This document shows positions 3,100-56,375 of a stretch of 64,000 nucleotides of DNA, in pieces (position 1 is the first letter of the stretch; each line of letters begins with the position of its first letter). Location of the stretch: positions 64,850 through 128,849 of the IMG/VR virus record IMGVR_UViG_3300035670_000017. One strand, 5' to 3'. A program made the translations under genes and the position numbers. The notes under the pieces were generated by a model. The model saw only the letters and a list, made by a program, of their open reading frames with translations, was not told the DNA's origin and made no database searches. Source of the stretch: a virus (taxonomy: Duplodnaviria; Heunggongvirae; Uroviricota; Caudoviricetes).

Positions 3100-3516
3100 A
3101 TGCAAGTAAGTTACACAACACAAGACCTGAAGCAGTTTCAAAATACGAAAAAGGACTACGATCTTATTGAGATCACCAGCGGCAATACCACTTCGTTTAG
3201 TGATGACACTGAATGGAAGTCCCATTTGTCTATCGGGATCGGTAACCGCAATCTCATCGAAGCACTGAAGACCATCAGTCGCTCGTTCAATACCAATAGC
3301 CATAAGCTGTCGAATGTTCTGGTCGCACAGAGTATCGGCCTTTCCGATTATGCAATCGGAGTGGCTCACGGTATCGCACAAGGTATGGAGCAGGATATCG
3401 TTTACAAGATGCAGGATGGAAAACAGCTACCCTCTTTGATTCCTGCGACTTCCATGGATATCATTCGAATCAAAAACATTATAGCTAACTCTATCCGGAG
3501 TTCAGCTATGTATTAA
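3100..3516 (+). CDS. hypothetical protein (138 aa)
   Basis: ORF downstream of the terminator hairpin. No recognisable motif. Confidence 0.4.
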   Translation: MQVSYTTQDLKQFQNTKKDYDLIEITSGNTTSFSDDTEWKSHLSIGIGNRNLIEALKTISRSFNTNSHKLSNVLVAQSIGLSDYAIGVAHGIAQGMEQDIVYKMQDGKQLPSLIPATSMDIIRIKNIIANSIRSSAMY

Positions 3517-3526
3517 AAGGAAGTAC

Positions 3527-3988
3527 ATGAATATAGAACAAGTGAAGAAATACCGACAAGGTATGTGGCTTGCAAATGACGCCGGACTGAAACGAGTACT
3601 AAGAGATTCTAAAGATAGAATTAGTGGTCTTTCATTTTTAGACTTCGAAAAGAACGTCAACTTTTATACTGAGTTTTCAGATATACTAAGCATACTCTAT
3701 TGTATGCATTTCCTTGTTTTCCGGGATCATTTCCATCCCAAAGCAGTATTGATGAAAGACCACAGGAATAAAATTTTTAAATACTCAATGTATCTTGGCG
3801 TCTCAACTAAAAGTGAACCTTATCCGGAGTATTTTCTCCTTAAATACAACTTGAATGAAAAATATCAGCTCCGAAAAGAAGAAGTGAGTGGAGTTATGAC
3901 ATTTAAACATGGCGATATGTATGATTATAATCACACTGAGGACATTGAGATACTGATCACTGACTTCACCGGAGGAATCCTTCAATGA
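3527..3988 (+). CDS. hypothetical protein (153 aa)
   Basis: AAGGAAGTACATG RBS-start. ORF in the + array. Confidence 0.5.
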   Translation: MNIEQVKKYRQGMWLANDAGLKRVLRDSKDRISGLSFLDFEKNVNFYTEFSDILSILYCMHFLVFRDHFHPKAVLMKDHRNKIFKYSMYLGVSTKSEPYPEYFLLKYNLNEKYQLRKEEVSGVMTFKHGDMYDYNHTEDIEILITDFTGGILQ

Positions 3989-4461
3989 ACTTTTCATCTG
4001 AAAAAGAACGTATCCGGGAAGTGTCTAGTGGATTGACTCTCGATAAAAACGTAATTATTCGCGACATTAAGCAAGAGGTAAGTTTTGGGTATAATAAGAA
4101 CATCTCCATTGATATGAATATCACGGATTTAGTTCGGTTTTTATACACTGTTCGCTGGAGATTAATCTCTCCGACCAATACAGCAAGCATCACTATCCAT
4201 CGAAATTACACACGAAATATTTTCTTCTATGCGCTCGATGTAAATCTCAGTCGCAAGAGACTCGATGTCACTAATAATCTACTGGTTGATTTTTCGCTAG
4301 TGAATAGTCAGCAAGATGCAGATGTGTTGCTAGTGATTCGACAGGATCATTCAGTTGGGCTTCAGATTTATGAAACACCGATGGCTATGGAAGAACTCAA
4401 AGACGGTGAACATACAGAAACCATAACCTTCCCATTGTTCAAAAACGGACATCCTATCTAG
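3985..4461 (+). CDS. hypothetical protein (158 aa)
   Basis: Start overlaps the upstream stop (ATGA). No motif recognised. Confidence 0.45.
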   Translation: MNFSSEKERIREVSSGLTLDKNVIIRDIKQEVSFGYNKNISIDMNITDLVRFLYTVRWRLISPTNTASITIHRNYTRNIFFYALDVNLSRKRLDVTNNLLVDFSLVNSQQDADVLLVIRQDHSVGLQIYETPMAMEELKDGEHTETITFPLFKNGHPI

Positions 4462-4515
4462 ATTTGTTGGTAGGTAACTCTACTCCCTTCTCTTCCCTTT
4501 CTTTAAAGAAACCCA

Positions 4516-6159
4516 ATGACCAAACCCGCTTTCCAAACATACATTGATTTTGTTAACTCCACTGATCTGGAGAACAACCCTCGTCGAGTTATCGTCTTCC
4601 ATCATGGTGACATGGATGGCTACATGGGTGCCGCAGCTGCTTTGCGCGGCTTCCATAGCTTTTGTATCGACGGCAACTATGCCGTATCCAAGGGTCACCA
4701 GAACCTGCTGCAAAACATCATCTTCAAGGAAGTCAATTACGGTCGCATTGATGACGAGGAAATCTTGAACATGATCCATCAGCCCGGTACTGATGTGTTC
4801 ATGGTTGATTTCTCCTTCCTGGAAGATCTGTGCGAGAAGATCTACGCTAAGGCGGACTTCTTCCTGATCCTGGATCATCACATTTCCAGTGAGCGTGTTC
4901 TCAAGGGTAAGCCCTATGCTTACTTTGACCCACAAGCATCTGGTGCCAAGATGGCGTTCGAATACTTCAGCCCCGGTGTGGAAGTTCCCTTGGCTGTTCA
5001 GCTGGTGGATAATCGCGACCTTTGGAAAAAGGACACTGGCTGGGAGGACGAATTCCACGAAGCTCTGTATGCACGATTTGTTCGCGCCAAGGAACAAGGC
5101 GAGAACTACAATCAGGCTTTTGTGTCGGAACTGTTCACTGACTATCTGCAGTATCCAGCTGACCCTCTGGGAATGGTGCACAAAATGATTCGCATAGGCA
5201 CGCCCATGGTTGAACGTCGTGATATCGGTATCCGTTCTATGTGCAGCGACAAGCGTTTGATCGAGACTATCATCGGTGGCCATCCCGCTATCGCAGTGAA
5301 CGCTCCTTTGGACCAATCGGATGCCGGTGAATACTTGTACAACCAAGACAAGTACAAGAACCACATCATCGCTTTGTTCAATGTCTTGAACGACAAGATG
5401 ACCTTCAGTCTGCGTCGTAACGAGAACTTGGATATTGATTTGTCAGCGCTTGCTCAAAAGCACTATGGTGGTGGCGGTCATTCTCCTGCGGCTGGTTTTG
5501 CAGTTCCATTGCAGCGTGGCCTGAATATCATCCAGAACAAGGAGAAGTGGGCGCTTTGCTGGCCAACAGCGGCTGTCAAGCAGGCCATGGGTGCAGCTGA
5601 TCTGGCGCAAGTGGCTCAGGATCTGAGCGTCATCACACCCGAGCTGCATTCGCGTGCTGTCTGTGAGACAAATCTGGACCTACTGCAGATCCTCCCTTAC
5701 ATCGTGATCAAGCACACTGACGGAACCTATTTCACATACAACCGTCCTTCCTCTGGCACTGAGTCTCGCTTGCATGGTAATGACTCGGTTGGCCTGGGTG
5801 GACATGTGGATACAGCTCCTGCTGCTGGTGTCTCGATTGGCCTGCATCTGGGATTGGAAGCTCAGCGTGAACTCATGGAAGAAGTTGGATTCAGTGATGA
5901 ATCTCTCCCCACTCAGATCGAACAAGCGTTCTACAACGGTCAATTTGCTTTGATCAATGTGAACACTCGTCCTGTGGATGCGGTTCATCTGGGAATCGTC
6001 TTCGTGATTGAAGTCACTGACAAAGCACATCTGACCAAGATCGAAGAGTCTGAAGTGATCAATCCTCGTTGGTCTACTTTGGAAGAGCTGCGCAATCTGC
6101 CAAATCCTGAAACATGGACGCGCATTTTCGCACATGAGCTGCTGCAAAATCCGATGTAA
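4516..6159 (+). CDS. DHH/DHHA1 phosphoesterase fused to a C-terminal Nudix hydrolase domain (547 aa)
   Basis: DHH motifs VFHHGDMDG and LILDHHISS. DHHA1 GGGH box HYGGGGHSPAAGFAV. C-terminal Nudix-box-like GLHLGLEAQRELMEEVGF (REuxEExGu). Confidence 0.7.
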   Translation: MTKPAFQTYIDFVNSTDLENNPRRVIVFHHGDMDGYMGAAAALRGFHSFCIDGNYAVSKGHQNLLQNIIFKEVNYGRIDDEEILNMIHQPGTDVFMVDFSFLEDLCEKIYAKADFFLILDHHISSERVLKGKPYAYFDPQASGAKMAFEYFSPGVEVPLAVQLVDNRDLWKKDTGWEDEFHEALYARFVRAKEQGENYNQAFVSELFTDYLQYPADPLGMVHKMIRIGTPMVERRDIGIRSMCSDKRLIETIIGGHPAIAVNAPLDQSDAGEYLYNQDKYKNHIIALFNVLNDKMTFSLRRNENLDIDLSALAQKHYGGGGHSPAAGFAVPLQRGLNIIQNKEKWALCWPTAAVKQAMGAADLAQVAQDLSVITPELHSRAVCETNLDLLQILPYIVIKHTDGTYFTYNRPSSGTESRLHGNDSVGLGGHVDTAPAAGVSIGLHLGLEAQRELMEEVGFSDESLPTQIEQAFYNGQFALINVNTRPVDAVHLGIVFVIEVTDKAHLTKIEESEVINPRWSTLEELRNLPNPETWTRIFAHELLQNPM

Positions 6160-6173
6160 GTAATCCTACTACT

Positions 6174-6218
6174 CACCTCCTGGCTCGATGCCAGGAGGTG
6201 TTGTAGGGTTATTTTTTC
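6174..6218 (+). terminator. intrinsic terminator (cacctcctgg ctcgatg ccaggaggtg + T-run)
   Basis: 10-bp GC-rich stem followed by ttgtagggttattttttcgtg. Confidence 0.7.
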
Positions 6219-11984: not shown

Positions 11985-12108
11985 ATATTTTCCCCTATAA
12001 AAGTATTAACCATAGGATACTCTAGGCGTTTGTCCAATAATGACGATATCCCTATATCCCATAGTAGAGAACATGTCACTAGTATTAGAGGGATAGTTAT
12101 GTCTAATG

Positions 12109-14219
12109 ATTTCATTTGGCCAGAGGAAAAATACCAACAGCAGATCAATCCTGTCAAACAGTACATCGATCAAGCGAGTAAGTTTATCTCCGTTAACCGC
12201 GGGATAACTCTGGACAAAGCCAGAAACTTTATTGTTCAAAAGCTCAAGAACAAACAGACCAACTTCAAAGATCCTCAAATCACCTACTTCGAGCGAAACG
12301 ACAACTGGGTACGTGAACTCAAGCAAGGAACTTTGTCGGGATACTTGAAGTCGGCGATTGATAACAAGGAAGTTATCGTCCCTACGTTTACAACCTATGT
12401 CAGTCCGGATGTAGAGCAGTCCTTGATCTCGCTTTTCATGAAGCGAAACGCAGGTCGGCGTGGCGTTTTGAAGAAACAAGCGCAAGTTGAAGAGATGCGC
12501 GGCAATAAAGAGCTAGCTTACCAGCTCAATAACCAACAGGACAACGCCAAGCGCAATAATAACTCCATGTCTGGGGTGATGGCCGCTGCTGGTAGTATCT
12601 TCGAGAATCCTACAGGTCACAACACGTTGACCTCTATGACTCGTTCGATGTCTTCTATCAGTAACGCTCTCAATGAACGCATGATCGGTGGCAATCGCCA
12701 CTATCTGGACAGTGAAGCAGCCCTGAACAACATGACTGCTTTGATCAGCACTATGGATATCGAATTGGTTCATCAAGCTATGGTCAAGTACAACCTAGCT
12801 GAACCCACTCCCGATGACATCGTGCGTATTGTTTCTCGCAGTGCTGATAAATACTGGCGAGATCCTCGTCACGTCAAATACATCTGGGATTATGCATCCA
12901 AGATGACTGGTCTGGAACGTGCAGCTGTCGCTTATACCCAAGACTTGTACCATATTCGTGAACTCAATCCTCAGTTCATGCGTAACTTCATTGAAGACTT
13001 TGCGCTGTGGGATAGTTCCATTGAAATTGTAGACCCCATTGACTTCATCAATAAGATCGACCCACTGATTGCTAACTACGCGCACCAGGTTTTCATCACT
13101 GATCTGCGTGGGCAAGACAAAGACCGTCGCCGCTGGAAGCCTGAACTTCAGATGAAGGTAGCTCAAGCATGTGCAACTATCGAGCGAGCCATCAAGAAGT
13201 ACAAATGTCTTATTGATGCATTCCTGGTAGTCCGTACCCTACCTTGCACTACGGCCCACATCAACCACATGGCTCGTGAATCCGTGGTTCTCTCGGATAC
13301 AGACTCGACCATGTTCGCAGTAGATGACTGGGTGATCTGGTACTTCGGTGATCTACAGTTCTCTGACTTGGCTTTTGCCGTAGCAGGCTCGATCATGTTT
13401 GTGTCGACACAGTTGATTGCCCACGGCATGGCTTTGTTGTCAGCCAATATGAACGTAGCTCGTGATAAGCTATTCGTTCTGGCTATGAAGCCGGAGTTCG
13501 TGTTCCCTGTGTTCGCTCAGACCCCTGTGGCCAAGCACTACTTCTGTTCCGTGTCTGTGAAGGAAGGCGGCGTCTACAAGGAAAATGAATACGAAATCAA
13601 GGGCGTGCATTTGAAGAGTTCCGCGTCTCCTATCGAGATTGTGGGTGCTGCTCAAGATCGCATGCGATTCATCCTGGATGAGATTCAAGCAGGTCGCAAA
13701 CTTGACGGCTATGCTGAATACAAACGTGTTGCTGATCTGGAACGAAAGATTGAAGAATCTATTCGCAAGGGTGAATCTGTCTTCTTGAAGAAGATGTTCA
13801 TCAAGACAGCAGCAAGCTATGCCAAGGGACCTGAAGAATCTCCTTATCGCTACCATACTCTTTGGAACGAAGTCTTCGCTCCATCGTACAGCAGTTTGGA
13901 AGAGCCTCCGTACGTGGTGTTGAAGTTTCCTATGACCACGGAGTCTAAATCGAAGATGGCGGCATGGATTGCTTCCTTTGAAGACCGTGGACTGGCAGAC
14001 CGATACATTCGGTACCTGCAAAAAGTTCAAAAGACTGAAATCAAGACGATGTACATTGCTAAGGACTACGTGGAAGCTTATGGCATCCCTAAGGAAATCC
14101 TGCGAGCAGTGGACATCAAGCGCGTTATCTTGGACTTGACGGTGATCGACCGGATGGTTCTCGAAACAATCGGCCTCAAACCTAAACATGAAACTCTCGT
14201 TTCCGAGATGGGATATTGA
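12109..14219 (+). CDS. large conserved hypothetical protein (703 aa from ATG 12109; frame open from 12030)
   Basis: AGAGGGATAGTTATG RBS-start. Motifs KRNNNSMSG, VLSDTDST and AKHY are faintly polymerase-palm-like but no motif A was found. No Walker A. Confidence 0.55.
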
Positions 14220-14698: not shown

Positions 14699-15514
14699 TT
14701 ACAGTCCAATGGGAAGTTGAGCACGGATGAAACGGTTGTAGCGTTCGCTATCCATAAAGGCTGCTTTAGCCCATTTGGTTCGCAGGAATGTTCGATAGTT
14801 CTCTTCTGCGTCAGCGTATTCATCCACCGTGGATTTGAATGCACCAAGCTCACTACCTCCTTCGATGAAGGCTTTATCGATGCGTACTCGCAAAGTCCGA
14901 TAGATATAAGCTTTGACAGCAAAGGCACATAGAGTGGAGAAAGTCTCGAAGTACCGGGGGTTGATCTTACTCAGGTAGTTGTTGTCCGTCACGTAGCAGC
15001 TGATGCTGTATGACGTATTATAACGCTGAGCATCTTCAAGCAAAATAGTGTTCTCACCGATCAACTCCACACGAGCAGTAGCTACGTTTGGAATAGCTGA
15101 GGAAGCTTCAACCATTTGCTGAGCAGCAGTCATGGTGTCTTGTGTGAACATGGGACCCACACCACCGTAAGCGTAACCGAAAGAGCCTGCGCCGCCGGTG
15201 TAAGGCATGTACGAGACACTCAGTACAGACAAGATAGTCTTTCCTGGGATCTTCCATTCAGGAATCTCATAGATGCAGCGGTAGTCTTCGATGACCTTAG
15301 CTTGCACATCACCGAGCCAGATGCGCATATGCTCGCCTTTGGCGATGTTTGCGTCAGGAATGACACGAGGACGTATCACTTTAGTCAAGATGGCATCCTC
15401 CATGCTACCGGCACGGGAGGTGTAACTGTTGTGAGTGTTCATGAAAGTTTGTACGAGTACCTCATTGGGTATCTCATACAAGATGTCTTGTATAGCTTTG
15501 ACCAATACGTTCAT
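14699..15514 (-). CDS. hypothetical protein (271 aa), minus-strand island gene
   Basis: Long ORF with compositionally protein-like sequence. Flanked by bidirectional terminators. Confidence 0.5.
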   Translation of the reverse strand: MNVLVKAIQDILYEIPNEVLVQTFMNTHNSYTSRAGSMEDAILTKVIRPRVIPDANIAKGEHMRIWLGDVQAKVIEDYRCIYEIPEWKIPGKTILSVLSVSYMPYTGGAGSFGYAYGGVGPMFTQDTMTAAQQMVEASSAIPNVATARVELIGENTILLEDAQRYNTSYSISCYVTDNNYLSKINPRYFETFSTLCAFAVKAYIYRTLRVRIDKAFIEGGSELGAFKSTVDEYADAEENYRTFLRTKWAKAAFMDSERYNRFIRAQLPIGL

Positions 15515-17198: not shown

Positions 17199-17406
17199 AT
17201 CTTTGTACTAGTTATCGAAAGTGAAGGGAGTCTTATCAATGACCATACTATCGGTTTGAGTTGGTAGTAAATAAAAATAAGTTTTTGTATATACTGTGGA
17301 CAAAACCCTATGCAGCCTTCGGGCTGCGGGTGGGAGATGTTCGGGTATTTTACAAATAGGGAAATAAGGCGTAATAAAAAACCCCTTTCTAAAATATTTA
17401 GACCCT

Positions 17407-17424
17407 ATATACTCTACTTGAGGT
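17407..17424 (+). promoter_or_regulatory. motif copy 3 TATATACTCTACTTGAGG
   Basis: In the 330-bp divergent region, 108 bp upstream of ATG 17532. Confidence 0.55.
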
Positions 17425-17531
17425 AAAGCTGCTTCTTGTAGTAATCTCACAGACTCGTGCAATAAAATGCGGCGAGTAGATAACAACCCCCAACCCTTCA
17501 TCAACAAAGACTTTTTCGAAAAGGATACATC

Positions 17532-19460
17532 ATGGCTATCAATGTCGACCTGAACAACCTGGGCAACAACGGTGACGCACCCAAGCCCCAACCAAGCACT
17601 GACCGCAGCGAGGGTCAGCGTCCTTCCTCGGACAATTCTCGCACCTTCACTCAACAGACGAAAAACATGAGCAACATCTTCAATCCCTTCGACAACACCG
17701 GCGGTCAAGTTCTGGGCCGCATGATCCATCCTGAGTCCGGCTCCGAAGCGTTCAAGCGCGTGGTTGAGCTGCTGACCAAGACAGCTGCTGAAACCAACGG
17801 CGCTATCGAGATCTTCCCCTTCCCTCGCGAAATCCACACCGACCTGAGCCACTCGGTCATCGCTGTGGTCCGCAGCAACAAGGTCCCCGTGGGTCCCGGT
17901 CGCCCCAAGCACGATTTCGTGACTTGCCAGATCTGGATCATGGAAGCCACTGGCGAAGTGCCTCGTGCTCATGAAGTGGTCGAAGGTGGCAAGCGCTGGA
18001 TGGTGACACCCACCATCGAAGACAGCCATAACACCATCCTGGTCGAATACGTGTCTTCGACCCTGCGCAACCACTACGGCCAAGAAACCCTGGTCATGAC
18101 GATCGATCCCCTGATCATTCCTCGTGAACAAGATCTGACCAAGGACGAACGCCTGGTGGCTCAGCTGGACGTGTCGATCACCGCTGTGAACACCCGCACC
18201 TATGTGCGCATCGACGGCTTCCAGGACTACAACTACGTTGCCAACCACGGCGGCAAGGATGTTATCCTGGCTGTGTCGACCAGCATCCGTCCCGAGACCC
18301 GCACCGACCTGCAAAACCGTCCCTTCTACTCCGACGCCGAAGTGGTGGTCTCCGTGGAAAAGAACGGTCCTCGCACTCAAGGCGAAGTGTTCCACCAGCC
18401 TTCCACGACCAAGGATGTCTGCGCGACTTCCGTGATGGTGGACCTGGTGCCCGTGGACGCTGAGCTGCTGGAAGTCAACCGTTCGCACCGTGGTTCGGGT
18501 TTCCGTCCCAAGGCTGCATGGGCTCCTCGTCTGACTGCCGTCAACGTCGACCAGTTCTTCACCCGCACTCCTGCTGGTATCCTGTTTGCGCTGACCTCGA
18601 TGACACAGCTGGCTGCTGACCGCGCATACGCTGAGACTTTCCGTCCCAGCAAGCAACGCGACGCAGTGAACCTGCGTGACATCGGCTACCTGAACATCGA
18701 AGCCAACCTGGACGACGAAGAAGGCGAATACGGCAGCCGCGTGCCTGTGCAAGACGCCAGCGACAGCGAAATCGGCAAGTTCCTGGACCTGACCGTGACC
18801 CGCTTCCCTATCCTGGCCGTCGACTGCATGACCACTGGTCCTCAGGCGTACTACACCACCGGTCTGTACAACGTGGCTCGTGGCCGCAGCGACAGCGCTC
18901 GTCGCGCTCAAGCCGAACTGTATCACAGCCTGCGCTGCGCTACCAACGGCCTGATCGAGAACTTCGTCAGTCCTGACGAATCGTTCGTGGCTGACGAAGG
19001 TGAGCTGATCCATGTCGGTTACTGGATCGATGACAACGGCCGTCGCCGTGACCTGCGTGAGCTGGACAACTATCTGGCTGTGGCTGCTCTGTCCAAGAAC
19101 AACCCTCGCCTGATCGACGACTGGTGCGCTACCTACCACCGCATCGACATCGCTGAAGCTCGCCGCATGAGCGACCGCTGGAACATCCTGATGGCCATCT
19201 CGGCCAATGAGGCTGTCCAGACCGGCACCGCGCTGCGCGTGGGTATCAACGACAAGGTGGTGAGTGGTTTCGTGGACGCTCTGAGCGAAGCCAAGCTGCC
19301 TATGGTCAGCCGTGGCAGCGGCAATGGCGACGCGTTCGCAGTGCATCGTGCTGTCAGCCGTACCGCTGGCCGCTCCATGTACCGTGGTCAAGGCATGGCC
19401 CACAGCCAAGTCGCCGCCGGTGGCCGCGCTACCAGCCGTTGGGCTGCAGACCGCTTCTAA
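17532..19460 (+). CDS. highly expressed 642-aa protein; candidate phage-nucleus shell protein (chimallin-like); major capsid protein is the alternative
   Basis: GC3-rich codon usage unlike its neighbours. Disordered N-terminus (~60 aa) and C-terminus (~50 aa) flank a ~530-aa core. Followed by the RNAP beta-prime N gene, as in phiKZ gp54-gp55. Confidence 0.5.
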   Translation: MAINVDLNNLGNNGDAPKPQPSTDRSEGQRPSSDNSRTFTQQTKNMSNIFNPFDNTGGQVLGRMIHPESGSEAFKRVVELLTKTAAETNGAIEIFPFPREIHTDLSHSVIAVVRSNKVPVGPGRPKHDFVTCQIWIMEATGEVPRAHEVVEGGKRWMVTPTIEDSHNTILVEYVSSTLRNHYGQETLVMTIDPLIIPREQDLTKDERLVAQLDVSITAVNTRTYVRIDGFQDYNYVANHGGKDVILAVSTSIRPETRTDLQNRPFYSDAEVVVSVEKNGPRTQGEVFHQPSTTKDVCATSVMVDLVPVDAELLEVNRSHRGSGFRPKAAWAPRLTAVNVDQFFTRTPAGILFALTSMTQLAADRAYAETFRPSKQRDAVNLRDIGYLNIEANLDDEEGEYGSRVPVQDASDSEIGKFLDLTVTRFPILAVDCMTTGPQAYYTTGLYNVARGRSDSARRAQAELYHSLRCATNGLIENFVSPDESFVADEGELIHVGYWIDDNGRRRDLRELDNYLAVAALSKNNPRLIDDWCATYHRIDIAEARRMSDRWNILMAISANEAVQTGTALRVGINDKVVSGFVDALSEAKLPMVSRGSGNGDAFAVHRAVSRTAGRSMYRGQGMAHSQVAAGGRATSRWAADRF

Positions 19461-19506
19461 TAGAAGCACAGCCTCTAGCAATAGGGGCTTTTAACTGAAG
19501 CATACT

Positions 19507-20564: not shown

Positions 20565-21734
20565 GTGCCTATTATTAATAGGTTTGTAAATCATGATGAG
20601 CTTTATGAAAAAGCGATCGCATCGGGAATCACCCCGATCATCATCAATGATCTACCGAATACTACAGAAGCCGACAAGCAGTACATCCGAGATCTGACAC
20701 TCACTCAACTTACCAGCGACACGATCAACACGATCCCCAGCTGTAAGTGTGGAGCTACCCGTGGCAAATATGCCATCGGCAAGGTCTGCCCGATTCCTAC
20801 ATGCGGAGACGTCGTCAAGACTAACATCGAAGACTCCTCTCGGTCTTTGCTCTGGGTGCGAGCACCTGAGGGTGTAGATGCATTGGTATCTCCGGTGGTT
20901 TGGAAGATGCTCTCCGCGTACTTCACCAAGAACAACCACAATGCGATTGCGTGGCTGACTGACTCTCACTATACAAGTGCTTCTCGAACTCCCGTGGAGA
21001 TTGATAAGCTGTATCGCAAGGGTCACGAGAGGGATCTGAATTATTTCATCAGGAATTTCGACACGATCTTGTTGGACCTGATGGAGATCTTCCCTGAAAA
21101 GCCAAATCGCAGGTATAACAAACTGCGGCATTTCATCGACGAACACCGAGACATCATCTTCAGTCGCTTTCAACCGATTGCTTCCCGGAACTTGTTCATC
21201 ACGGACAAGACCAATCTGGGTATCTACATGGAAGATGCGATCAAGGATGCCCTGGACACCATCTATCACTTTGTGTCGATCGACGCAGAGTTCTATGATC
21301 GGTCTCCTAAGGTGATCGCTAATCGAACAGCGCGCTTTCTTGCCAGACAAGCGGAGTTCTATCCCGACTACATCACTACGAACTTTCAGCCAAAGCCGGG
21401 TCACTACCGACGCTATATGCTGGGTGCTCGTAACATCTTCTCTGCTCGCGGTGTGATCACATCAGTCACAGGTGAGCATAAGTATGACGAAGTCGGTATA
21501 CCGTGGCGTATCGCAGTTCCGATGTATAGTCATGACCTCATGGGTAAACTCATGCGGTACGGCTATAACTTCAATGAAGCTCTTGGCTATGTGATGCGAA
21601 AGGTTGTCGTATATGACAAACTGATCCATCGCTTCTTGGATGAGATCTTCAGTGAGTCTCCTGGTGGACGTGGACCTTCGATGATCTTACATCGGAACCC
21701 AACGCTTATACATTCAATATATTCATACATATAG
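20565..21734 (+). CDS. multisubunit RNA polymerase beta-prime, N-terminal fragment, exon 1 (reading frame runs into intron 1)
   Basis: GTG start with AGGAAGG RBS. Zn ribbon CKCG-x11-CPIPTCG. RRYMLGARNIFSARGVITSV matches GKRVDFSGRSVI. ILHRNPTLIHS matches NRAPTLH. Confidence 0.8.
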   Translation: MPIINRFVNHDELYEKAIASGITPIIINDLPNTTEADKQYIRDLTLTQLTSDTINTIPSCKCGATRGKYAIGKVCPIPTCGDVVKTNIEDSSRSLLWVRAPEGVDALVSPVVWKMLSAYFTKNNHNAIAWLTDSHYTSASRTPVEIDKLYRKGHERDLNYFIRNFDTILLDLMEIFPEKPNRRYNKLRHFIDEHRDIIFSRFQPIASRNLFITDKTNLGIYMEDAIKDALDTIYHFVSIDAEFYDRSPKVIANRTARFLARQAEFYPDYITTNFQPKPGHYRRYMLGARNIFSARGVITSVTGEHKYDEVGIPWRIAVPMYSHDLMGKLMRYGYNFNEALGYVMRKVVVYDKLIHRFLDEIFSESPGGRGPSMILHRNPTLIHSIYSYI

Positions 21735-23150
21735 TATGAGAGTATTGAAGCGTCGATATCTCTCTTATTTAAGCTAGGGAAATACCGATGTCTAATGAAA
21801 CTGTAATTAACTTTGACGGAGAAGACTGGAAAGCTGTTCCAGGGTTTTCAGATGTTTACGTGACTAAAACCGGACGAGTTGCCGGTAGACGTCGGGGAAT
21901 AATGATCGAGAGAATATACCAGAAAAGCAATCGCTTATACGGTATCGATGAAAATGGAAACGAATCCAGATACATCCTCGTGACTCTTCCCGGTAAAAAA
22001 GGAGGTAGATCCCGGACAAGCACAGGCGTTCATCGTCTTGTTTGTTTGACTTGGAACGGACCGCCACCATCTGACGATAAGAAATATGAAGTTAACCACA
22101 TAGACGGAAACAAGGCTAATAATAACGCCAAGAATCTGGAATGGGTTACCGGATCTAAGAATGTTCAACATTGTTACAACATCGGAAAGCACTCTGTTGC
22201 TCGACGAATAGTTGCCACCAATGTTGATACTGGTTTGGTTAAATACTATCGCTCGGGAAAACAATTAGCCGACGAATACGGATTTAATCATTTCCACGTC
22301 TCATCTTTCCTCAATAAACATGAAACCGACCCCTTGGATGGGTGGGTTTTTGAATACGAGGCGACGGATGAATCTACTTCTTATCGACATCACTCTTCGC
22401 GTCAAATAGCTTATAAAGACTATCTAACTAATGTAATACATCTCTTGCCGTCTTGCAGAGCAGCTTCTAGCCTATCTAAAGTCAAATGCGGAACTATTGT
22501 TTCCGCTGTACGATATAATAGACTCAATGGGCCGCGCTTAACAGGACAATTCGTTTTTCAGGATCTAACCGCGAATATGGTCTGGCCTGAATATACGAAG
22601 GAGGAGATTGAGACAAGTATAGAAAGTATGCGTAAGCGTTCGTTACTTACAGCGAAACGACATCGTTTCTAAAGTTTAAATAAGGGAGATATTGGCGAGT
22701 AGGCCGATTATCTAGAAATAGGTAATTGAAATCTACCTTTTTGCGGGGAACTCTCGTTAGGCTCTATCTACCAAGTACAATGAGTAATTGTTGTATGGCT
22801 TGTCTAGTCAGCAAGGTACGGTAACAAGGATAGAGATAGAGACAATCGCGCAGCGAAGCTCCCACTGGGAGTAGCGTTCAACGACTAGAGCTGAAATGCT
22901 CGTAGGGCCCAAGCGGGCGTGCAACTTGCACCGTAAGCCGAAATGGTAGACACCTGACCAGGTAATGCTGAAGGTGAAGATATAGTCTGTTCCATCTCTG
23001 AACTGACAGAGAGTAATGAGCGAAAGCTCTGGCGGGTGTCCTAGCGCACCGGCTTAATTCAAAGATCGACGTGAGTCGTGGCGGTTTTAAGCGGACATTA
23101 AGGCAACAAGGTTCCATGCAGCGCTTCTTTGGTAAGCTGAAGACTGATCC
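21735..23150 (+). mobile_element. group I intron 1 (about 1.4 kb, boundaries approximate) carrying an HNH homing-endonuclease ORF
   Basis: Core elements downstream of the HEG: P 22741 TTGCGGGGAA, Q 22844 AATCGCGCAGC, R 22876 GTTCAACGACTAGA, S 22977 AAGATATAGTC. No protein-coding signal 22673-23150 apart from the micro-exon. Confidence 0.6.
21788..22672 (+). CDS. HNH homing endonuclease (294 aa), intron-encoded
   Basis: HNH motif VHRLVCLTWNG...YEVNHIDGNKANNNAKNLEWVT. N-terminal NUMOD-like WKAVPGFSDVYVTKTGRV. Own RBS GGGAAATACCGATG. Confidence 0.8.
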   Translation: MSNETVINFDGEDWKAVPGFSDVYVTKTGRVAGRRRGIMIERIYQKSNRLYGIDENGNESRYILVTLPGKKGGRSRTSTGVHRLVCLTWNGPPPSDDKKYEVNHIDGNKANNNAKNLEWVTGSKNVQHCYNIGKHSVARRIVATNVDTGLVKYYRSGKQLADEYGFNHFHVSSFLNKHETDPLDGWVFEYEATDESTSYRHHSSRQIAYKDYLTNVIHLLPSCRAASSLSKVKCGTIVSAVRYNRLNGPRLTGQFVFQDLTANMVWPEYTKEEIETSIESMRKRSLLTAKRHRF

Positions 23151-30054: not shown

Positions 30055-31350
30055 ATGACATTTCCCTTCATCGCAAAGAAAAAACTGACTCAACCTTTCT
30101 TGACAGTACAGGAAATTGCTGATCGCGAGACAGTCTTTTTGCAAGCTATGCTGCAAGATCCCCTGTTCAAGCGGAACTTCCTGGAGTGGTTTGAGTACTA
30201 CGATAAAAATCGTGAGAACATGCACATCTACTCCGTCAAGCGCAAGTGGGCTGAAGACATCGGTCAGCTTCTGACTGGTCTGACGACTGAATTGCATCGT
30301 TTCGTCAAAGAAGTTCTGCAACGCCACTCTCCCGAAGAACTGTTCCAGCTCTACCCGATGCCAGGTGTGAGTCAAGAGCGCTTCATCGAGTTCGCTAAAT
30401 ATGCGAAGTGGACAGCAGAGCAAAACCATCGCAACATTGGCTCTCGTTACGACTTTGCGATCAATCCATCCGGCAATATCTTCATCTATGAAATCAATGC
30501 CGACACTCCGTCGATGCTGTTTGAATCGATGAACTTGCAGAACTTGATGTCTGAGCATCTGGGTAACACTGAAGCTCAGTTCAATGAGATCTGGGAGATG
30601 TCTAAGGATAATCCTTTTGTCGGGCCTGATGAAACCGTCGCAATCGTGACGCATGACAAGTCGGGTGAAGACTTTGGTTCGGTGGAATCGATTGCTCAGT
30701 TGGCTGAGAATGGTGGCGGTACTGTTTTGTTCAGCACTTTGGATGACTTGATGTTCGACCCTGAAGAAGAGCATCGTAGTCCATTCTTCCTAAAGTCGAT
30801 CCCTGAAACAGAACTGGATAGCCTCTACGTCATGCTTCCTTGGGAAGAGATGCTTGAGTCGGAAATGAAGATCATTGAGAACTGGGAGAAGTGGTGTGAA
30901 TACGTCAACTTCTTCGAACCAGCTTGGGCTTGGTTCCTTTCCCATAAGTTCTTGCTGGCTGATTTCTGTGCTGAATACGGACGCAGTTTCTCGATCGACG
31001 GTATCACGCCGATTATCCATTTGGATTCTTCTCGAACACCAGTCGCAATTGGTGAATATGTGAGCAAGCCGGTGGTTGGACGCAAGTCTTCCGACGTAGC
31101 GATTCATTGTGCTATGTCTATCGGCCCACAAGGTCAGATATACCTGCATAAATCCAAGAACGAAACCTATTCACATGTTCCTATGGTCTATCAGCCTCTT
31201 CGTGAGACGATCAAGATCGACGGAGCAAGTGCTATGGGATGCATGTGGACTTACGGCCCATCAGCGGCTTGTCTGAGCTTCCGTGAATTCGATGGCCCTA
31301 TCCTGGAAGTTGATAACGAACGTGTCATCATGCACGAACTCGTTGATTAA
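30055..31350 (+). CDS. GSP_synth-family ATP-grasp enzyme (glutathionylspermidine synthetase-like, 431 aa)
   Basis: Motif NIFIYEINADTPSMLFES recalls the EFNADTP signature of glutathionylspermidine synthetase / YgiC-YjfC ATP-grasp proteins. Confidence 0.45.
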   Translation: MTFPFIAKKKLTQPFLTVQEIADRETVFLQAMLQDPLFKRNFLEWFEYYDKNRENMHIYSVKRKWAEDIGQLLTGLTTELHRFVKEVLQRHSPEELFQLYPMPGVSQERFIEFAKYAKWTAEQNHRNIGSRYDFAINPSGNIFIYEINADTPSMLFESMNLQNLMSEHLGNTEAQFNEIWEMSKDNPFVGPDETVAIVTHDKSGEDFGSVESIAQLAENGGGTVLFSTLDDLMFDPEEEHRSPFFLKSIPETELDSLYVMLPWEEMLESEMKIIENWEKWCEYVNFFEPAWAWFLSHKFLLADFCAEYGRSFSIDGITPIIHLDSSRTPVAIGEYVSKPVVGRKSSDVAIHCAMSIGPQGQIYLHKSKNETYSHVPMVYQPLRETIKIDGASAMGCMWTYGPSAACLSFREFDGPILEVDNERVIMHELVD

Positions 31351-38671: not shown

Positions 38672-39424
38672 ATGTCAGAGGTAACGAAAGAAAATCAAGC
38701 TGTGCCTTTGGTCTTGTTCTCCGGTGGTTTGGACTCCACTGCTGTACTGGAATGGGCTCTGAAAGAATACCGCAGAGTCGATGTCCTTAGCTTTGAGATG
38801 AGTGGACAGCCTGAGAAATCTCAAAAGGAGGAGAAAGCTCGAAGGGCTATCTTTCTGGAATTATCGAGGCTTCATGCTGAAGATCCTAAGACCTACGGTG
38901 AAATTGGGATGCATTTTGTAGAACGCATTCCCGGCCTTAAGCGTTTTCACTGTTCGTCTCGAATGCCTCAGATGGCAGGTTGGTTAGGTGCTACTCCTAA
39001 TTACGTATCCATGCAGACCAATGCAGTGTATGTCGGCACCGTTTTAGGGGATACGCAAGGCACTCGTTTCACTGACGCACAATGGGCGTGGTCTTATCTC
39101 TGTTCCACTACTGAGACAACTGGTTTCGAAGGCCAAGCTCCTCAGCTAGAAGCCCCTTATCGATATAAGACCAAGAACGAGTTATTGGAGCTGGTGTCTC
39201 CTTCCTTGTTGCAACATGTCCAGTGGTGTGAAGGTAAGGACGAAGGAGATTGCGGTAAGTGTGATTCCTGTCTACGGATGCTGCAAGTCGCAGCCATTTC
39301 TTCGACCCTTCATCCGGAGATTTATGACGCATCTCTGTTAAAGGATCGTCTTCACCAACTGCTGGTGTGTCATCGAAAAACATCATTGTACTCGGAAGAT
39401 GTATCCGTACCGAATACTCAATAA
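38672..39424 (+). CDS. QueC-like PP-loop ATP pyrophosphatase (250 aa)
   Basis: PP-loop LFSGGLDSTAVLEWAL. C-terminal Cys cluster WCEGKDEGDCGKCDSCLRM like the QueC zinc site CxxxxxxxGCGxCxxC. Confidence 0.55.
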   Translation: MSEVTKENQAVPLVLFSGGLDSTAVLEWALKEYRRVDVLSFEMSGQPEKSQKEEKARRAIFLELSRLHAEDPKTYGEIGMHFVERIPGLKRFHCSSRMPQMAGWLGATPNYVSMQTNAVYVGTVLGDTQGTRFTDAQWAWSYLCSTTETTGFEGQAPQLEAPYRYKTKNELLELVSPSLLQHVQWCEGKDEGDCGKCDSCLRMLQVAAISSTLHPEIYDASLLKDRLHQLLVCHRKTSLYSEDVSVPNTQ

Positions 39425-40965: not shown

Positions 40966-41033
40966 CATGATGAATAATTGACTTGCGCTCTCTATTAACT
41001 GAGGGGATTTTCTCTCAAACCCAAGGAAACAAA

Positions 41034-42641
41034 ATGTCCGAACAAAATCTGGTTACTTCTATTTCTGAAACCAATCAAAATACTCTGCTCAACGCAGACC
41101 AGGCCAATGCGCGCACACAAGTTCTGCGCGCAGCTATTCGTACACGCATCCAAGATCTGATTACAGAAGGTGCGGCTTTCATTCGCACTGAACGAAAAGT
41201 CAACAAGGCCAACTCCTGGTTGCGTGAACAAATGCAACCCGAAGCGCGTGGCGTCTACAAGTGCCGCTGCTGTAGCGAGTTCTTCGAAGACTTCTCTCGC
41301 GTGGGTTACGTGAACTTCCAGGGCTCTGCGCAAAATATCCTGGCCGAAGTACTGAATGCAACCTTGGGCACGAACTTCCCGACTCGTGCAGAGATCATTG
41401 AATCCATGCGCCTGACTACTGCGATGACTAACGCGGAAAAGGGAGGCTGGGAACATTACTTCGCCTTCACTCCAGAAGAGATCGAACAACTCAACGAAGA
41501 CTATGTCTTCGACCCGATGTTGTCCGCAGTCATTGCACGGAACTACTTCAACAAGCGTTTGCCTGCCAAAGACATCGCTCAATTCATCGCTGACGTAGAA
41601 GAGAAAATCTACAACAAGGCAGCTTTTGGTCCCGTGAAGCAATTCTTGGAGTTCATGAAGACTGCCCCGTTGATGAATGTGTCTGCTGCGCAAGCTGCTG
41701 CTTTGGTCAATGTCAAGGAATACCGCTTCCTGCGGCACCTGAACGGCACGGCTGCTCATACGTACTTTATCAGCCCTCTGCAGTCGGCAGGCGCTTACAA
41801 AGCTGATCCACTTTGGGAAACCAACATCGATGACTTCAACCGCGTGACAGATCCTGATGTCTACAAGAAGAAGGTCGCAGAAGCCAATACTCAAAACTTG
41901 CTCCAGATGCAAAAGCTTTTGGAAGAAAAGGGTTGCGAGAACATCTTCGAGCGCCGCTTGGCTAGCATCGGTGACGTGAAACTCACATGGATGCCTGCCG
42001 AAGATGACAAGCCCGAGCCTGAGGTTAAAGGTACGTCGCTGATGCACAAGCTGGTCAGCAAAGCGGTCAATGAACGTGAAGAGTCGAAGGGAAATGACTA
42101 CTCCTTCAATGGTAATGCGACGAAAGTTTCTCTTGCTACTTTCAGCAAACTCTACCCACAGGCAACAGCCATCAAGATCTTGGGCGGTACCTTCTATGTC
42201 GCCTTCACATCTATCGCTACCAAACCTGGTAACTTCGATGAGATCATGAATTGCGGTGAGAATGCGTCTACAACATTGATGTTCACAAATCCTGTCCAGT
42301 TGGGCGGCACTGTGCACGATGCGATTGCTGCGTTCGAGGCCCCTCCTTATTCTCAGCAAGAAGGACAGGATGTGATTCACTTTGTTATCCAACCAGCGAT
42401 CAAGCATGTCCAAAGCGTCGGCCTGGATAAGCTCAGCGGCGGCATCATCGGTACCTGCATCAAGAGCAAGTACAACGGCATCTCCCGTCCTCTGACGGAG
42501 CTGGCCACCCAGGTGACTCTGGAAGAACCACTGGACAAGGAACCATGGGCTTGCTCGGTACCCGTGTCCATGAAGCGCACAGTAGCTTTGATGGATCCTG
42601 ATGGCATCTGGAAGACCTACCAAATCACTTCTAAGGAATAA
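41034..42641 (+). CDS. hypothetical protein (535 aa from ATG 41034), GC3-rich codon usage (probably highly expressed)
   Basis: CAAGGAAACAAAATG RBS-start. Codon usage resembles 17532..19460. The long antisense ORF 40995..42623 is read as a shadow. Confidence 0.6.
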   Translation: MSEQNLVTSISETNQNTLLNADQANARTQVLRAAIRTRIQDLITEGAAFIRTERKVNKANSWLREQMQPEARGVYKCRCCSEFFEDFSRVGYVNFQGSAQNILAEVLNATLGTNFPTRAEIIESMRLTTAMTNAEKGGWEHYFAFTPEEIEQLNEDYVFDPMLSAVIARNYFNKRLPAKDIAQFIADVEEKIYNKAAFGPVKQFLEFMKTAPLMNVSAAQAAALVNVKEYRFLRHLNGTAAHTYFISPLQSAGAYKADPLWETNIDDFNRVTDPDVYKKKVAEANTQNLLQMQKLLEEKGCENIFERRLASIGDVKLTWMPAEDDKPEPEVKGTSLMHKLVSKAVNEREESKGNDYSFNGNATKVSLATFSKLYPQATAIKILGGTFYVAFTSIATKPGNFDEIMNCGENASTTLMFTNPVQLGGTVHDAIAAFEAPPYSQQEGQDVIHFVIQPAIKHVQSVGLDKLSGGIIGTCIKSKYNGISRPLTELATQVTLEEPLDKEPWACSVPVSMKRTVALMDPDGIWKTYQITSKE

Positions 42642-50805: not shown

Positions 50806-51579
50806 ATGAAAAGACTGAGCACAATGATCCTCAAGGCCAGGGAGCTGCATAAGGATCAAATTCGCCGATACACTGGTGAGAAGTATGAGATCCATCTGGC
50901 TGAAGTAGCTGCTTTGGCGATGATGTATTATCACTACGTCCAAGATGACGTGCCTTTGCATGTTTACCTAGCAGTGGCTTGGTGGCACGATGCTGCTGAA
51001 GATCAAGGTCAGACTTTCGAACAGCTGCGTGATTTCGCTCTTGTCACCGGGTTCGAAGAACACGAAGCACTGCAGTTTGCTCTCGGGGTAATGACTCTGT
51101 CGGATATCGAGGGAGATAATCGCGAAGACCGTAATGCTAAGTCTCGATTCAGATTGACCAATGCTGAACTTTGGTTGCAGTTGATCAAGTGCGGTGATTT
51201 GGAAAGCAACACCAAAAGCATCTTCTTGAAGGATCCTGATTTCTTCAAGATCTACTGCGGAGAGAAGAAGAAAATTCTTTCAGTATTGACTAAGGTCGAT
51301 CCTGAAGTCATCAAACGCTTGGACGTCAGCCTGGATGAAATGATGGAATCTATCCTCGACCGCCCATGGTGTTCCACCGCGACCTGCGGCGGTATTCTTA
51401 CGGAAGATACAAGACCCGTATTGTATCGGACCGTCCATGGAAGCTATAAGACCCAGAAGGACGTGAGAGGTCTGTTTTGCACACACTGCAACCATATCCA
51501 GCTATTGGAAAGCCGCGGCTCAACTGAATTGAAGAACCGCCATTCGAAAGGACGTGCATTTTTCGGAATTGAATTATAA
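50806..51579 (+). CDS. HD-domain hydrolase of the SpoT/Mesh1 (small alarmone hydrolase) type with C-terminal Cys4 zinc ribbon (257 aa)
   Basis: ARELHKDQIRRYTGEKYEIHLAEVA and WWHDAAEDQGQTFEQL align with RelA/SpoT HD motifs AHxGQxRxSGEPYxxHPLxVA and LHDVxEDTxxTxEE. C-terminal CSTATCGG...CTHCNH. Confidence 0.6.
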   Translation: MKRLSTMILKARELHKDQIRRYTGEKYEIHLAEVAALAMMYYHYVQDDVPLHVYLAVAWWHDAAEDQGQTFEQLRDFALVTGFEEHEALQFALGVMTLSDIEGDNREDRNAKSRFRLTNAELWLQLIKCGDLESNTKSIFLKDPDFFKIYCGEKKKILSVLTKVDPEVIKRLDVSLDEMMESILDRPWCSTATCGGILTEDTRPVLYRTVHGSYKTQKDVRGLFCTHCNHIQLLESRGSTELKNRHSKGRAFFGIEL

Positions 51580-51586
51580 GGAACAT

Positions 51587-52138
51587 ATGTCAAGTAAAAG
51601 GAGTATCGATAAAATCAGTCGGTTTCTGTCTTATATTCTGAGACATGAACCGGATGACATTGGTCTTGAATTGGATGAGCACGGCTGGGCTGATGTTGAA
51701 GAACTGATCACTAGAACAAACTCTAGTGAGAAGTTTCCAAGCATGAAGCTGACTATGGAGCTACTGAAAGAAACAGTGGCTACAGATGCTAAGCAGCGAT
51801 TTAGTTTCGATGAAGCGGGTACTAAGATTCGCGCTAATCAAGGTCATTCAGTGAAAGTGGATCTAGGTCTTGAAAATCAAGTGCCTCCGGATATCCTCTA
51901 TCACGGAACCATCCAGGCTAACTTGGAATCCATCTTTCGAGATGGTCTCCATGCTGGTGAACGCCACGCGGTGCATCTGTCGAAAGACACTGCCAGAGTG
52001 GTCGGATCTCGAAGAGGTGTTCCTGTGGTCTTGACTATTGACGCTAAGGCTATGCATGAAGCTGGTCTGACGTTTCAATGCTCGGACAACGGGGTCTGGT
52101 TAACAGAGTCTGTGCCCGCTATGCACATAATCCAATAA
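51587..52138 (+). CDS. kptA: RNA 2'-phosphotransferase Tpt1/KptA (183 aa from ATG 51587)
   Basis: N-terminal ISRFLSYILRHEPDDIGLELDEHGWADVEEL. Catalytic LYHGTIQANLESIFRDGL and GERHAVHLS. AAGGAACATATG RBS-start. Confidence 0.8.
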   Translation: MSSKRSIDKISRFLSYILRHEPDDIGLELDEHGWADVEELITRTNSSEKFPSMKLTMELLKETVATDAKQRFSFDEAGTKIRANQGHSVKVDLGLENQVPPDILYHGTIQANLESIFRDGLHAGERHAVHLSKDTARVVGSRRGVPVVLTIDAKAMHEAGLTFQCSDNGVWLTESVPAMHIIQ

Positions 52139-56052: not shown

Positions 56053-56375
56053 TGCAGCAATACACACACGGATACATCACCAGACTGCACCCATTGAACA
56101 TGGTGTCTTTGTATTTGACTGCCTGTTATTTAAAGGAATACTACGGATATCAAGTGCTTACTGGTGCGTGCTTTTCTCTCTTGACCGCTCGGTTATCGGA
56201 GAACTTTGATTTCATTCAAGAGCATCCTCATGCTTTCTTGATCACACAGGAAAACCTGAAGTCCAATGACACCAGCTTCATCATGGAAAGTAAAGTGCCT
56301 GTCAGAATAGGTTTCGCCGCCAAACAACTTTTAGAAACATCCAGACAAGGAAAGTTATATGAAAGATCAGCTTGA
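56049..56375 (+). CDS. hypothetical protein (108 aa), possible third MQQ-family member
   Basis: Begins MMQQYTHGY. ATGA overlap upstream and overlaps the ligA start. Confidence 0.4.
   Translation: MMQQYTHGYITRLHPLNMVSLYLTACYLKEYYGYQVLTGACFSLLTARLSENFDFIQEHPHAFLITQENLKSNDTSFIMESKVPVRIGFAAKQLLETSRQGKLYERSA

Follow-up and report, generated by a model that had tools for sequence, protein, structure and literature searches.

The small-substrate DHH/DHHA1 phosphodiesterases with solved structures, such as NrnA and NrnB, Staphylococcus aureus Pde2, Borrelia burgdorferi DhhP, the pAp phosphatase of Methanothermococcus thermolithotrophicus and the Helicobacter pylori protein 6mtz, have a common two-lobed fold that carries four motifs and a GGGH sequence. 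NrnB has been found to degrade both RNA and DNA 5-mers (PMC2731908); the published data describe 3'-to-5' degradation of short RNAs, with neither activity on pAp nor cleavage of c-di-AMP. It is set apart from NrnA by a long helical linker, as a study from 2025 described, and has a clade-specific C terminal extension. Here we describe a gene on the forward strand at positions 4516-6159 of a 64,000 nt stretch of viral DNA (hereafter the window; positions 64,850 to 128,849 of IMG/VR record IMGVR_UViG_3300035670_000017), the product of which has the motifs, and the predicted fold, of these enzymes, whilst being only 12-18% identical to them. In common with NrnB it has a long helical linker between its lobes; however, in place of the C terminal extension there is a complete Nudix enzyme.

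The closest sequence relatives of the N terminal half are the phage DHH phosphoesterases of family phrog_4771, including ORF168 of Ralstonia phage RP12, gp125 of Pseudomonas phage EL and gp060 of phiCbK, which are around 26% identical over aa 25-340 (E 1e-23) and are mostly found in jumbo phages, in replication-type neighbourhoods. These are single enzymes of approximately 280-410 aa. Likewise, members of the family to which the Nudix half belongs, typified by TM1382 of Thermotoga maritima, are normally standalone proteins, whereas here a DHH enzyme precedes the module in the same polypeptide. The same clade has also been joined to another enzyme of nucleotide metabolism, in a protein (P0020) that is cellular rather than viral and has a deaminase instead of the DHH enzyme, with the Nudix module again at the C terminus; this shows recruitment of the clade as a module in pathways that produce (deoxy)nucleoside monophosphates ((d)NMPs). 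For the role proposed below for the Nudix half, a purely functional analogy is provided by gp56 of phage T4, a dCTPase/dUTPase that converts deoxynucleoside triphosphates (dNTPs) to dNMPs for the pathways operating at that level. The fold of gp56, which was not compared here, is unrelated, and the protein is not fused to a nuclease.

Domain structure of the fusion protein

The gene starts with an ATG codon and encodes 547 aa followed by a stop codon, and all of the domains and motifs described in this section lie on the forward strand. The PHROGs database splits the product in two, phrog_4771 ('DHH phosphoesterase') matching aa 21-358 (E 1e-48) and phrog_8902 ('unknown function') matching aa 382-543 (E 6e-32), whilst the automatic pipeline of the Joint Genome Institute (JGI) labels it with both COG names, 'oligoribonuclease NrnB' among them. 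An identical protein is present on metagenomic contigs of up to 184,740 bp. Fifteen full-length homologues, with identities ranging from 33% to 99%, make up the alignment used to assess conservation (alignment A1).

The DHH catalytic domain (aa 20-175; 4573-5040) is recognised by Pfam PF01368 over aa 25-151, at 29.2 bits against a gathering cut-off of 28.1. All four of the Asp/His metal-binding motifs of the superfamily (DxD, D, DHH and D) are present, as motif I HHGDMDG (4600-4620), motif II VDF (4804-4812), motif III DHH (4873-4881) and motif IV DNRDLW (5008-5025), each with coordinates verified in the DNA; residues H29, H30, D32, D34, D98, D120, H121, H122, D165 and D168 are invariant in the 15 homologues. 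The DHHA1 substrate-binding domain (aa 246-340; 5251-5535), which is supported by fold matches to DHH/DHHA1 enzymes as well as by Pfam PF02272 (aa 277-333; 26.1 bits against a cut-off of 25.9), contains the motifs SLRR (5407-5418) and GGGGHSPAAGF (5467-5499, also verified in the DNA). Within these, S298, R300, G319-G321 and H322 are invariant across the same homologues, GGGGH corresponding to aa 318-322. The two lobes are joined by a linker (aa 176-245; 5041-5250) predicted by DSSP, from the structural model, to form three helices (177-193, 198-211 and 220-242). This is the least conserved segment, with a mean pairwise identity of 0.285 as against about 0.5 for the lobes.

The AlphaFold2 model built on the A1 alignment is confident, with a predicted local distance difference test (pLDDT) score of 89.4 and a predicted template modelling (pTM) score of 0.77, and matches DHH enzymes in its N terminal half and the Nudix protein TM1382 in the remainder. 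The former has the two-lobed alpha/beta fold joined by a linker that characterises the DHHA1 subfamily, and has H. pylori 6mtz as its nearest solved DHH structure, with a Foldseek E value of 1e-13. Its fold matches also include RecJ, archaeal RecJ2 and Cdc45, and their ranking does not single out NrnB; nor was any NCBIfam nanoRNase model matched by the protein. The NCBIfam models for RecJ (15.4 bits; cut-off 396.9) and archaeal RecJ (18.4 bits; cut-off 360) scored far below their thresholds, and the OB-fold domain of true RecJ proteins is absent, the C terminal region having a Nudix fold.

Standalone proteins of around 205 aa, annotated as 'predicted NUDIX family phosphoesterase', align from end to end with the C terminal 207 aa of the product (aa 341-547). 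Hence the gene, on the evidence of these alignments, joins two complete proteins head to tail, without a linker between them. The first-pass annotation of the window correctly recognised both the DHH/DHHA1 and Nudix domains, but gave the Nudix module 150 aa, rather than the 207 aa that directly abut DHHA1. The module begins with an N terminal extension (aa 341-385; 5536-5670), delimited by the standalone-protein alignment and the family profile, which opens with a conserved, gap-free junction sequence, NKEKWALCW (5536-5562), and in which R380 and E384 are invariant. It is followed by the fold core (aa 386-547; 5671-6156), predicted to adopt the alpha/beta/alpha sandwich typical of Nudix proteins and containing the motifs QILPY (5686-5700), ESRLH (5761-5775), GLGGHVD (5791-5811), VHLG (5983-5994) and ETW (6109-6117), in addition to the core of the Nudix box, EAQRELMEEVGF (5857-5892, coordinates verified in the DNA).

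The box itself is atypical. Its REUxEExGU half is canonical, with R451, E452, L453, E455, E456, G458 and F459 all invariant in the A1 homologues, so the catalytic glutamates on which the first-pass annotation had made its assignment depend are indeed present alongside R451 (E452, E455 and E456); however, the upstream Gx5Ex7 half is replaced by GGHxD, of which GGH is invariant, and a variable loop of around 15 residues, such that only part of the Nudix box conforms to the consensus. The Pfam NUDIX match (aa 449-529) is below threshold, at 18.9 bits against a cut-off of 21.1, although three relatives (P0022, P0207 and P0211) exceed it. Both halves therefore look catalytically competent on the basis of their conserved residues.

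The C terminal part matches the structure of TM1382 (PDB 3e57, 'putative Nudix hydrolase') with an E value of 1e-7, which improves to 4e-43 when the family profile is compared with TM1382 residues 10-202, whereas every functionally characterised Nudix protein in the PDB, MutT included (E 0.1), has an E value of 0.1 or greater with the same profile. Hence the Nudix half is assigned by profile comparison to a distinct, uncharacterised clade, that of TM1382 and the 'predicted NUDIX family phosphoesterase' proteins. Alignment A2, in which aa 341-547 are compared with 29 relatives, either standalone or fused in other ways (30 sequences in all), covers the full length of approximately 205 aa, including the N terminal extension, and has 16 invariant columns, all of them shared by the protein described here; these constitute a family signature of R380, E384, Q391, E416, R418, L419, G428, G429, H430, R451, E452, E455, E456, H491, G493 and W534. 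Positions 473-477 read F/I/L-x-x-G-x, with only G475 conserved, and have neither a conserved Pro or Tyr nor the sequence SQPWPFPxS. According to a heuristic reportedly set out by Dunn and colleagues in 1999, Nudix enzymes acting on ADP-ribose, ApnA, NADH and CoA are marked by a Pro about 15-16 or a Tyr about 16-18 residues downstream of the box, by SQPWPFPxS and by the NuCoA motif upstream of it.

The TM1382 family is large, comprising 1,199 proteins at E<=1e-10 and occurring in at least 598 genomes of bacterial species. Nothing relevant to TM1382, COG4112 or 9R7O emerged from the literature searched. No protein named YmaB was among the homologues found by an A2-based search, and a profile search of genome contigs with another alignment (A3) recovered Verrucomicrobiota only, making it uninformative with regard to YmaB and nrdEF. 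Some relatives have additional domains: in one 295 aa JGI protein (P0068) a HARE-HTH DNA-binding domain precedes the Nudix module, giving a further architecture of the clade, whilst those on P0276, P0298, P0186 and others had no informative Pfam match.

Conservation and distribution of the fusion

Conservation is equal in the two halves (mean pairwise identity of 0.45 in one and 0.425 in the other), and the divergence of one is correlated with that of the other (r = 0.71). Together with the gap-free junction, this fits a single ancestral fusion in which both activities would have been kept under selection.

The fusion is both real and rare, and the first-pass annotation was right to call it unusual. 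When 1.84 billion cluster representatives were scanned exhaustively with HMMER, about six full-length fusions were recovered, scoring more than 650 bits, and three fragments, scoring 347-363 bits; scores then drop to approximately 220 bits, at which point the matches become standalone DHH (around 300 aa) or standalone Nudix (around 210 aa) proteins. None of the 109 GenBank phage records matching the DHH half has a Nudix extension, and neither these nor the 70 records matching the Nudix half have both in one gene. Scanning IMG/VR with the fusion alignment gave 131 pattern matches, none of which was confirmed as a fusion, and no viral structure in BFVD covers more than one half (best TMq 0.46). 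All of the fusions that were found come from jumbo phages that encode chimallin, where they occupy a single colinear core block; the architecture is confined to one uncultivated phage clade. It was not described in the literature searched, and is accordingly an undescribed combination of two known superfamilies, both of the subfamilies involved being uncharacterised.

Genomic context of the fusion and its relatives

The core block is colinear in four divergent phages, running from SH3DP through the fusion gene to the DNA polymerase, DUF7484 and, beyond them, chimallin, with other genes between. DUF7484 follows the polymerase in all four cases, and chimallin lies further downstream wherever the fetched DNA extends that far. 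Across the four phages the polymerase is about 70% identical, the fusion protein 41-51% and the products of the flanking genes 24-46%. In the window, a divergent DNA polymerase (12030-14219) is encoded around 6 kb downstream of the fusion gene, followed by DUF7484 (14699-15514, reverse strand) and the phage-nucleus shell protein chimallin (17532-19460, forward strand; Pfam 59 bits, cut-off 27). In the two loci for which the retrieved DNA extends far enough (L099 1-339 and L108 2813-3403), a DHFR gene with the same orientation as the fusion gene is found 7-10 kb upstream of it; on the window's parent contig the distance is approximately 10 kb, which places DHFR just outside the window. The presence of chimallin, a phiKZ-type RNA polymerase and other genes of the window identifies the source, by gene content, as a nucleus-forming, Chimalliviridae-like jumbo phage that is known only from metagenomes; no near-identical DNA was found among GenBank phages.

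Directly 3' of the fusion gene's stop codon is a terminator-like hairpin with a U-tract (6158-6214, forward strand), with a predicted free energy of -37.6 kcal/mol (z = -8.6); none of 200 shuffled sequences folded equally well. A simple terminator scan made no call at this position, but the hairpin probably ends the transcription unit of the fusion gene, judging by its predicted fold. A scan for sigma-70 promoters upstream of the gene was at background (10 found, 6.6 +/- 2.4 expected), and is uninformative because the phage has its own RNA polymerases. A long antisense open reading frame (ORF) shadows the gene at 4480-5364, and a similar one is found opposite 40983-42641.

Several standalone or otherwise-fused relatives of the Nudix half are encoded alongside genes of deoxynucleotide metabolism. 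The deaminase fusion mentioned above, P0020, in which the partner is a dCMP deaminase, lies directly upstream of the genes for thymidylate kinase and ThyX on a bacterial contig (L002 6653-9360, Logan SRR25013194); this locus has the appearance of a compact dTTP-synthesis operon, to which the Nudix module presumably supplies dCMP or dUMP. Another relative (P0036) is flanked by Tmk and thymidylate synthase on one side and DHFR on the other, a third (P0060) is found three genes after a dCTP deaminase, and that of jumbo phage PaBG, annotated as 'phosphoesterase (MutT family)', is 2.5 kb after a dCTP deaminase on the same strand. Two more, P0023 and P0030, on two contigs of a single lineage, directly follow or overlap a dNMP-kinase-like gene, for which the Pfam DNMK matches are faint to weak. 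In Staphylococcus phage 6ec the Nudix gene comes directly after that of the DNA polymerase, and the module also contains NrdI/E/F, a deoxyribosyltransferase and guanylate kinase, and in an SP15-type Listeria phage it follows the primase. YmaB, the Nudix protein encoded by the Bacillus subtilis nrdI-nrdE-nrdF-ymaB operon, has been reported to have a preliminary dNTP pyrophosphohydrolase activity (PMC5960316).

A bacterial cluster (L009 3003-6630) contains genes for a dCTP deaminase, an APH-type kinase with a TCAD9 domain, an AIR-synthase-like protein and a TM1382-type Nudix protein, an order repeated on another contig (L010). The TCAD9 domain has been described in nucleotide-centred conflict systems, and this cluster may not represent plain metabolism.

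The DHH relatives have replication-type neighbours: the gene order is NAD ligase, a hypothetical gene, RNase H, DHH and RNA ligase in phage EL; dNMP phosphatase, DHH and RNase H in phiCbK; and helicase, DHH and NAD ligase in RP12. Some of the phage homologues are automatically annotated as 'ssDNA-specific exonuclease'. The standalone DHH and Nudix families occupy largely different groups of phages. Two candidates for a DHH partner close to a standalone Nudix gene were rejected: the 'phosphohydrolase' two genes away in PaBG is not a DHH protein, and the 'RecJ-like' gene of 6ec is a remote DHH relative (E 2e-5) located 13 kb from the Nudix gene.

Proposed function and alternatives

We favour, with belief and doubt in about equal measure, the view that the protein is a replication-associated, bifunctional nucleotide-recycling enzyme that belongs to the replication and deoxynucleotide-supply machinery of a nucleus-forming jumbo phage. 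The DHH/DHHA1 half would belong to the metal-dependent phosphodiesterases that act on small substrates (NrnA, NrnB, Pde2, DhhP, pAp-phosphatase and archaeal RecJ2), and would trim short oligonucleotides of either RNA or DNA until nucleoside 5'-monophosphates are left; the breakdown products of host nucleic acids and primer fragments released by RNase H are candidate substrates. The Nudix half would act as a TM1382/YmaB-type pyrophosphohydrolase, cleaving (d)NTPs to (d)NMPs and pyrophosphate, and, from the genomic company of the family, its likeliest substrates would be dNTPs with a pyrimidine base, for example dCTP or dUTP. Both active sites would then yield (d)NMPs, which could feed dNMP kinases and the thymidylate cycle, a DHFR being carried nearby. 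We infer the substrates of the two halves, and co-localised production of (d)NMPs as the purpose of the fusion, from these comparisons. A role in nucleotide salvage had been offered in the first-pass annotation as an alternative to one in countering host defences, and it is the better supported of the two, given the deoxynucleotide company of the Nudix clade and the position of the gene in the core block.

Several observations weigh against nucleotide recycling. The immediate neighbours of the fusion gene are small ORFs without PHROG or Pfam annotation, meaning the argument from context relies on the relatives and on genes 6-10 kb away. Furthermore, three of the standalone Nudix contexts were uninformative, and it is rare for one phage genome to contain both the standalone DHH and the standalone Nudix family, whose genes were not neighbours in any of the cases checked, hence there is no Rosetta-stone support for their coupling. 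The fold neighbours of the DHH half include the c-di-AMP/pApA phosphodiesterases DhhP, GdpP and Pde2, so a signalling nucleotide is conceivable as its substrate. For the TM1382 family, the preliminary dNTP pyrophosphohydrolase activity of YmaB is the only one published, and YmaB presumably shares COG4112 with TM1382. Nor is it obvious why the conversion of dNTPs to dNMPs should be joined to an oligonucleotidase.

Sequential action on the same molecule would explain a fusion. That the two sites act one after the other on a single class of molecule requiring both chemistries, either decapping and then digesting short RNAs or erasing two kinds of immune signal, nevertheless seems doubtful to us. 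In the first of these schemes, which explains the fusion best but is in our judgement unlikely, the Nudix half would remove a 5' pyrophosphate or NAD-type cap, as RppH and NudC do, from primer fragments, nanoRNA primers, abortive transcripts or host mRNAs, and the DHH half would degrade the uncapped RNA to NMPs. The rigid, conserved junction without a linker and the pTM score of the model are suggestive of coupled sites, NrnA and NrnB enzymes complete the decay of RNA, and the window has genes of an RNA-repair type (Tpt1, a phosphohydrolase and NAD ligase); in addition, phage DHH genes adjoin RNase H, and the standalone Nudix gene of the SP15-type phage comes after the primase. However, the Nudix clade is unrelated to RppH and NudC beyond the superfamily level, no characterised Nudix protein in the PDB bettering an E value of 0.1, and its fusions and neighbours point to the metabolism of deoxynucleotides rather than RNA. 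Enzymes of the NrnB type also start at the 3' end, such that the state of the 5' end would matter for the last dinucleotide only.

The second scheme, that suggested by the first-pass annotation, is an anti-defence enzyme in which the DHH half linearises or degrades the cyclic di- and oligonucleotide messengers of cyclic-oligonucleotide-based antiphage signalling systems (CBASS) and type III CRISPR (cyclic oligoadenylates), whilst the Nudix half cleaves the ADP-ribose (ADPR)-derived messengers of Thoeris or their products. DHH/DHHA1 enzymes are able to degrade c-di-AMP and cA4, DhhP, GdpP and Pde2 being fold neighbours as noted, and genes that counter host defences are numerous in jumbo phages. 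According to the predictions of Iyer et al. (2021), the DHH phosphodiesterases of these phages are directed against the signals of SMODS and type III systems, and the Nudix domains of phages process ADPr (PMC7824862). Yet these are predictions, and in the literature searched no phage DHH or TM1382-type Nudix protein has been shown to erase immune signals; NrnB proteins, including that of H. pylori, did not cleave c-di-AMP in published assays. The Nudix clade keeps company with dNTP metabolism and not with NAD or ADPR genes, and downstream of its box lacks the conserved Pro or Tyr that the specificity rule given above would require. The fusion gene and the DNA polymerase share a block that is colinear in four divergent phages, and not a variable island. 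PADLOC gave no match at E<=0.1, which is weak evidence because its models represent defence rather than anti-defence proteins. With clade, context, synteny and PADLOC all failing to lend it positive support, we consider this role quite improbable.

A role in replication fidelity or repair, combining a MutT-like sanitiser of non-canonical or damaged dNTPs (8-oxo-dGTP, dUTP or dITP) with a RecJ-like single-strand exonuclease acting on flaps or gaps, would suit the location near the DNA polymerase, the fold matches to RecJ, archaeal RecJ2 and Cdc45, the 'exonuclease' annotation of some phage homologues and the weak profile matches to MutT. Those annotations are automatic, however, and the protein has neither an OB fold nor any other DNA-binding extension, scoring 15-18 bits with RecJ models whose cut-offs are 360-397; with the Nudix clade also distinct from MutT (E 0.1), this appears very improbable.

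Other features of the window

Upstream of the fusion gene, two adjacent forward-strand ORFs (1982-2440 and 2431-2892) encode tandem paralogues of about 152 aa, which are 37% identical over 62 aa (E 2e-11) and have no PHROG match; the ORFs of 138-158 aa at 3100-4461 may belong to the same expansion. The stretch around chimallin (18-20 kb) has a G+C content of 0.56, as against approximately 0.45 elsewhere, and chimallin is shadowed by a 757 aa antisense ORF (17208-19481, reverse strand). It is followed by a fragment of a phiKZ-type RNA polymerase beta subunit (20565-21734, forward strand; 389 aa, corresponding to profile positions 1-383 of 478), directly after which is an HNH endonuclease (the pair spanning 20565-22672, forward strand), possibly a homing enzyme that either adjoins the polymerase gene or interrupts it.

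Further along the forward strand are genes for a glutathionylspermidine-synthase-like protein (30055-31350; phrog_6215, E 3e-59) and a QueC-like PP-loop protein (38672-39424; Pfam QueC over aa 13-61, E 2e-11; phrog_1550 'QueC-like queuosine biosynthesis', E 8e-24). A 7-deazaguanine pathway, and with it a role in clearing dGTP, was considered on account of the latter and dropped, as the ten neighbouring ORFs had no Pfam match; QueD, QueE, FolE and DpdA were not seen among them. Modification of the DNA with 7-deazaguanine is possible but unsupported, and no sign was found that the source phage modifies its DNA. A metal-dependent HD-type phosphohydrolase gene (50806-51579, forward strand; phrog_990) overlaps that of the RNA 2'-phosphotransferase Tpt1/KptA (51554-52138, forward strand; phrog_5470, E 4e-63), with an NAD-dependent DNA ligase (56359-58461, forward strand) a few kilobases beyond. 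These three genes resemble an RNA-repair-type set.

Conclusions

The fusion represents a well-supported and rare architecture, the most likely function of which we infer to be ordinary nucleotide housekeeping. Both halves come from large and functionally uncharacterised subfamilies: the phage DHH proteins, which jumbo phages have in common with giant viruses, and the Nudix proteins of the TM1382 type, whose range takes in well over a thousand lineages of bacteria and phages. As a natural fusion is a strong hint that two activities belong to one pathway, characterising this protein could annotate both families. Were the two sites to act in series, the enzyme would constitute a single-polypeptide pathway undescribed in phages and provide a first function for the TM1382/COG4112 clade; an attack on immune messengers or capped RNAs would make it a new type of counter-defence or RNA-decay enzyme. 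If it instead recycles nucleotides, as we favour, it would be a new piece in the supply of precursors to the compartmentalised replication of nucleus-forming phages.

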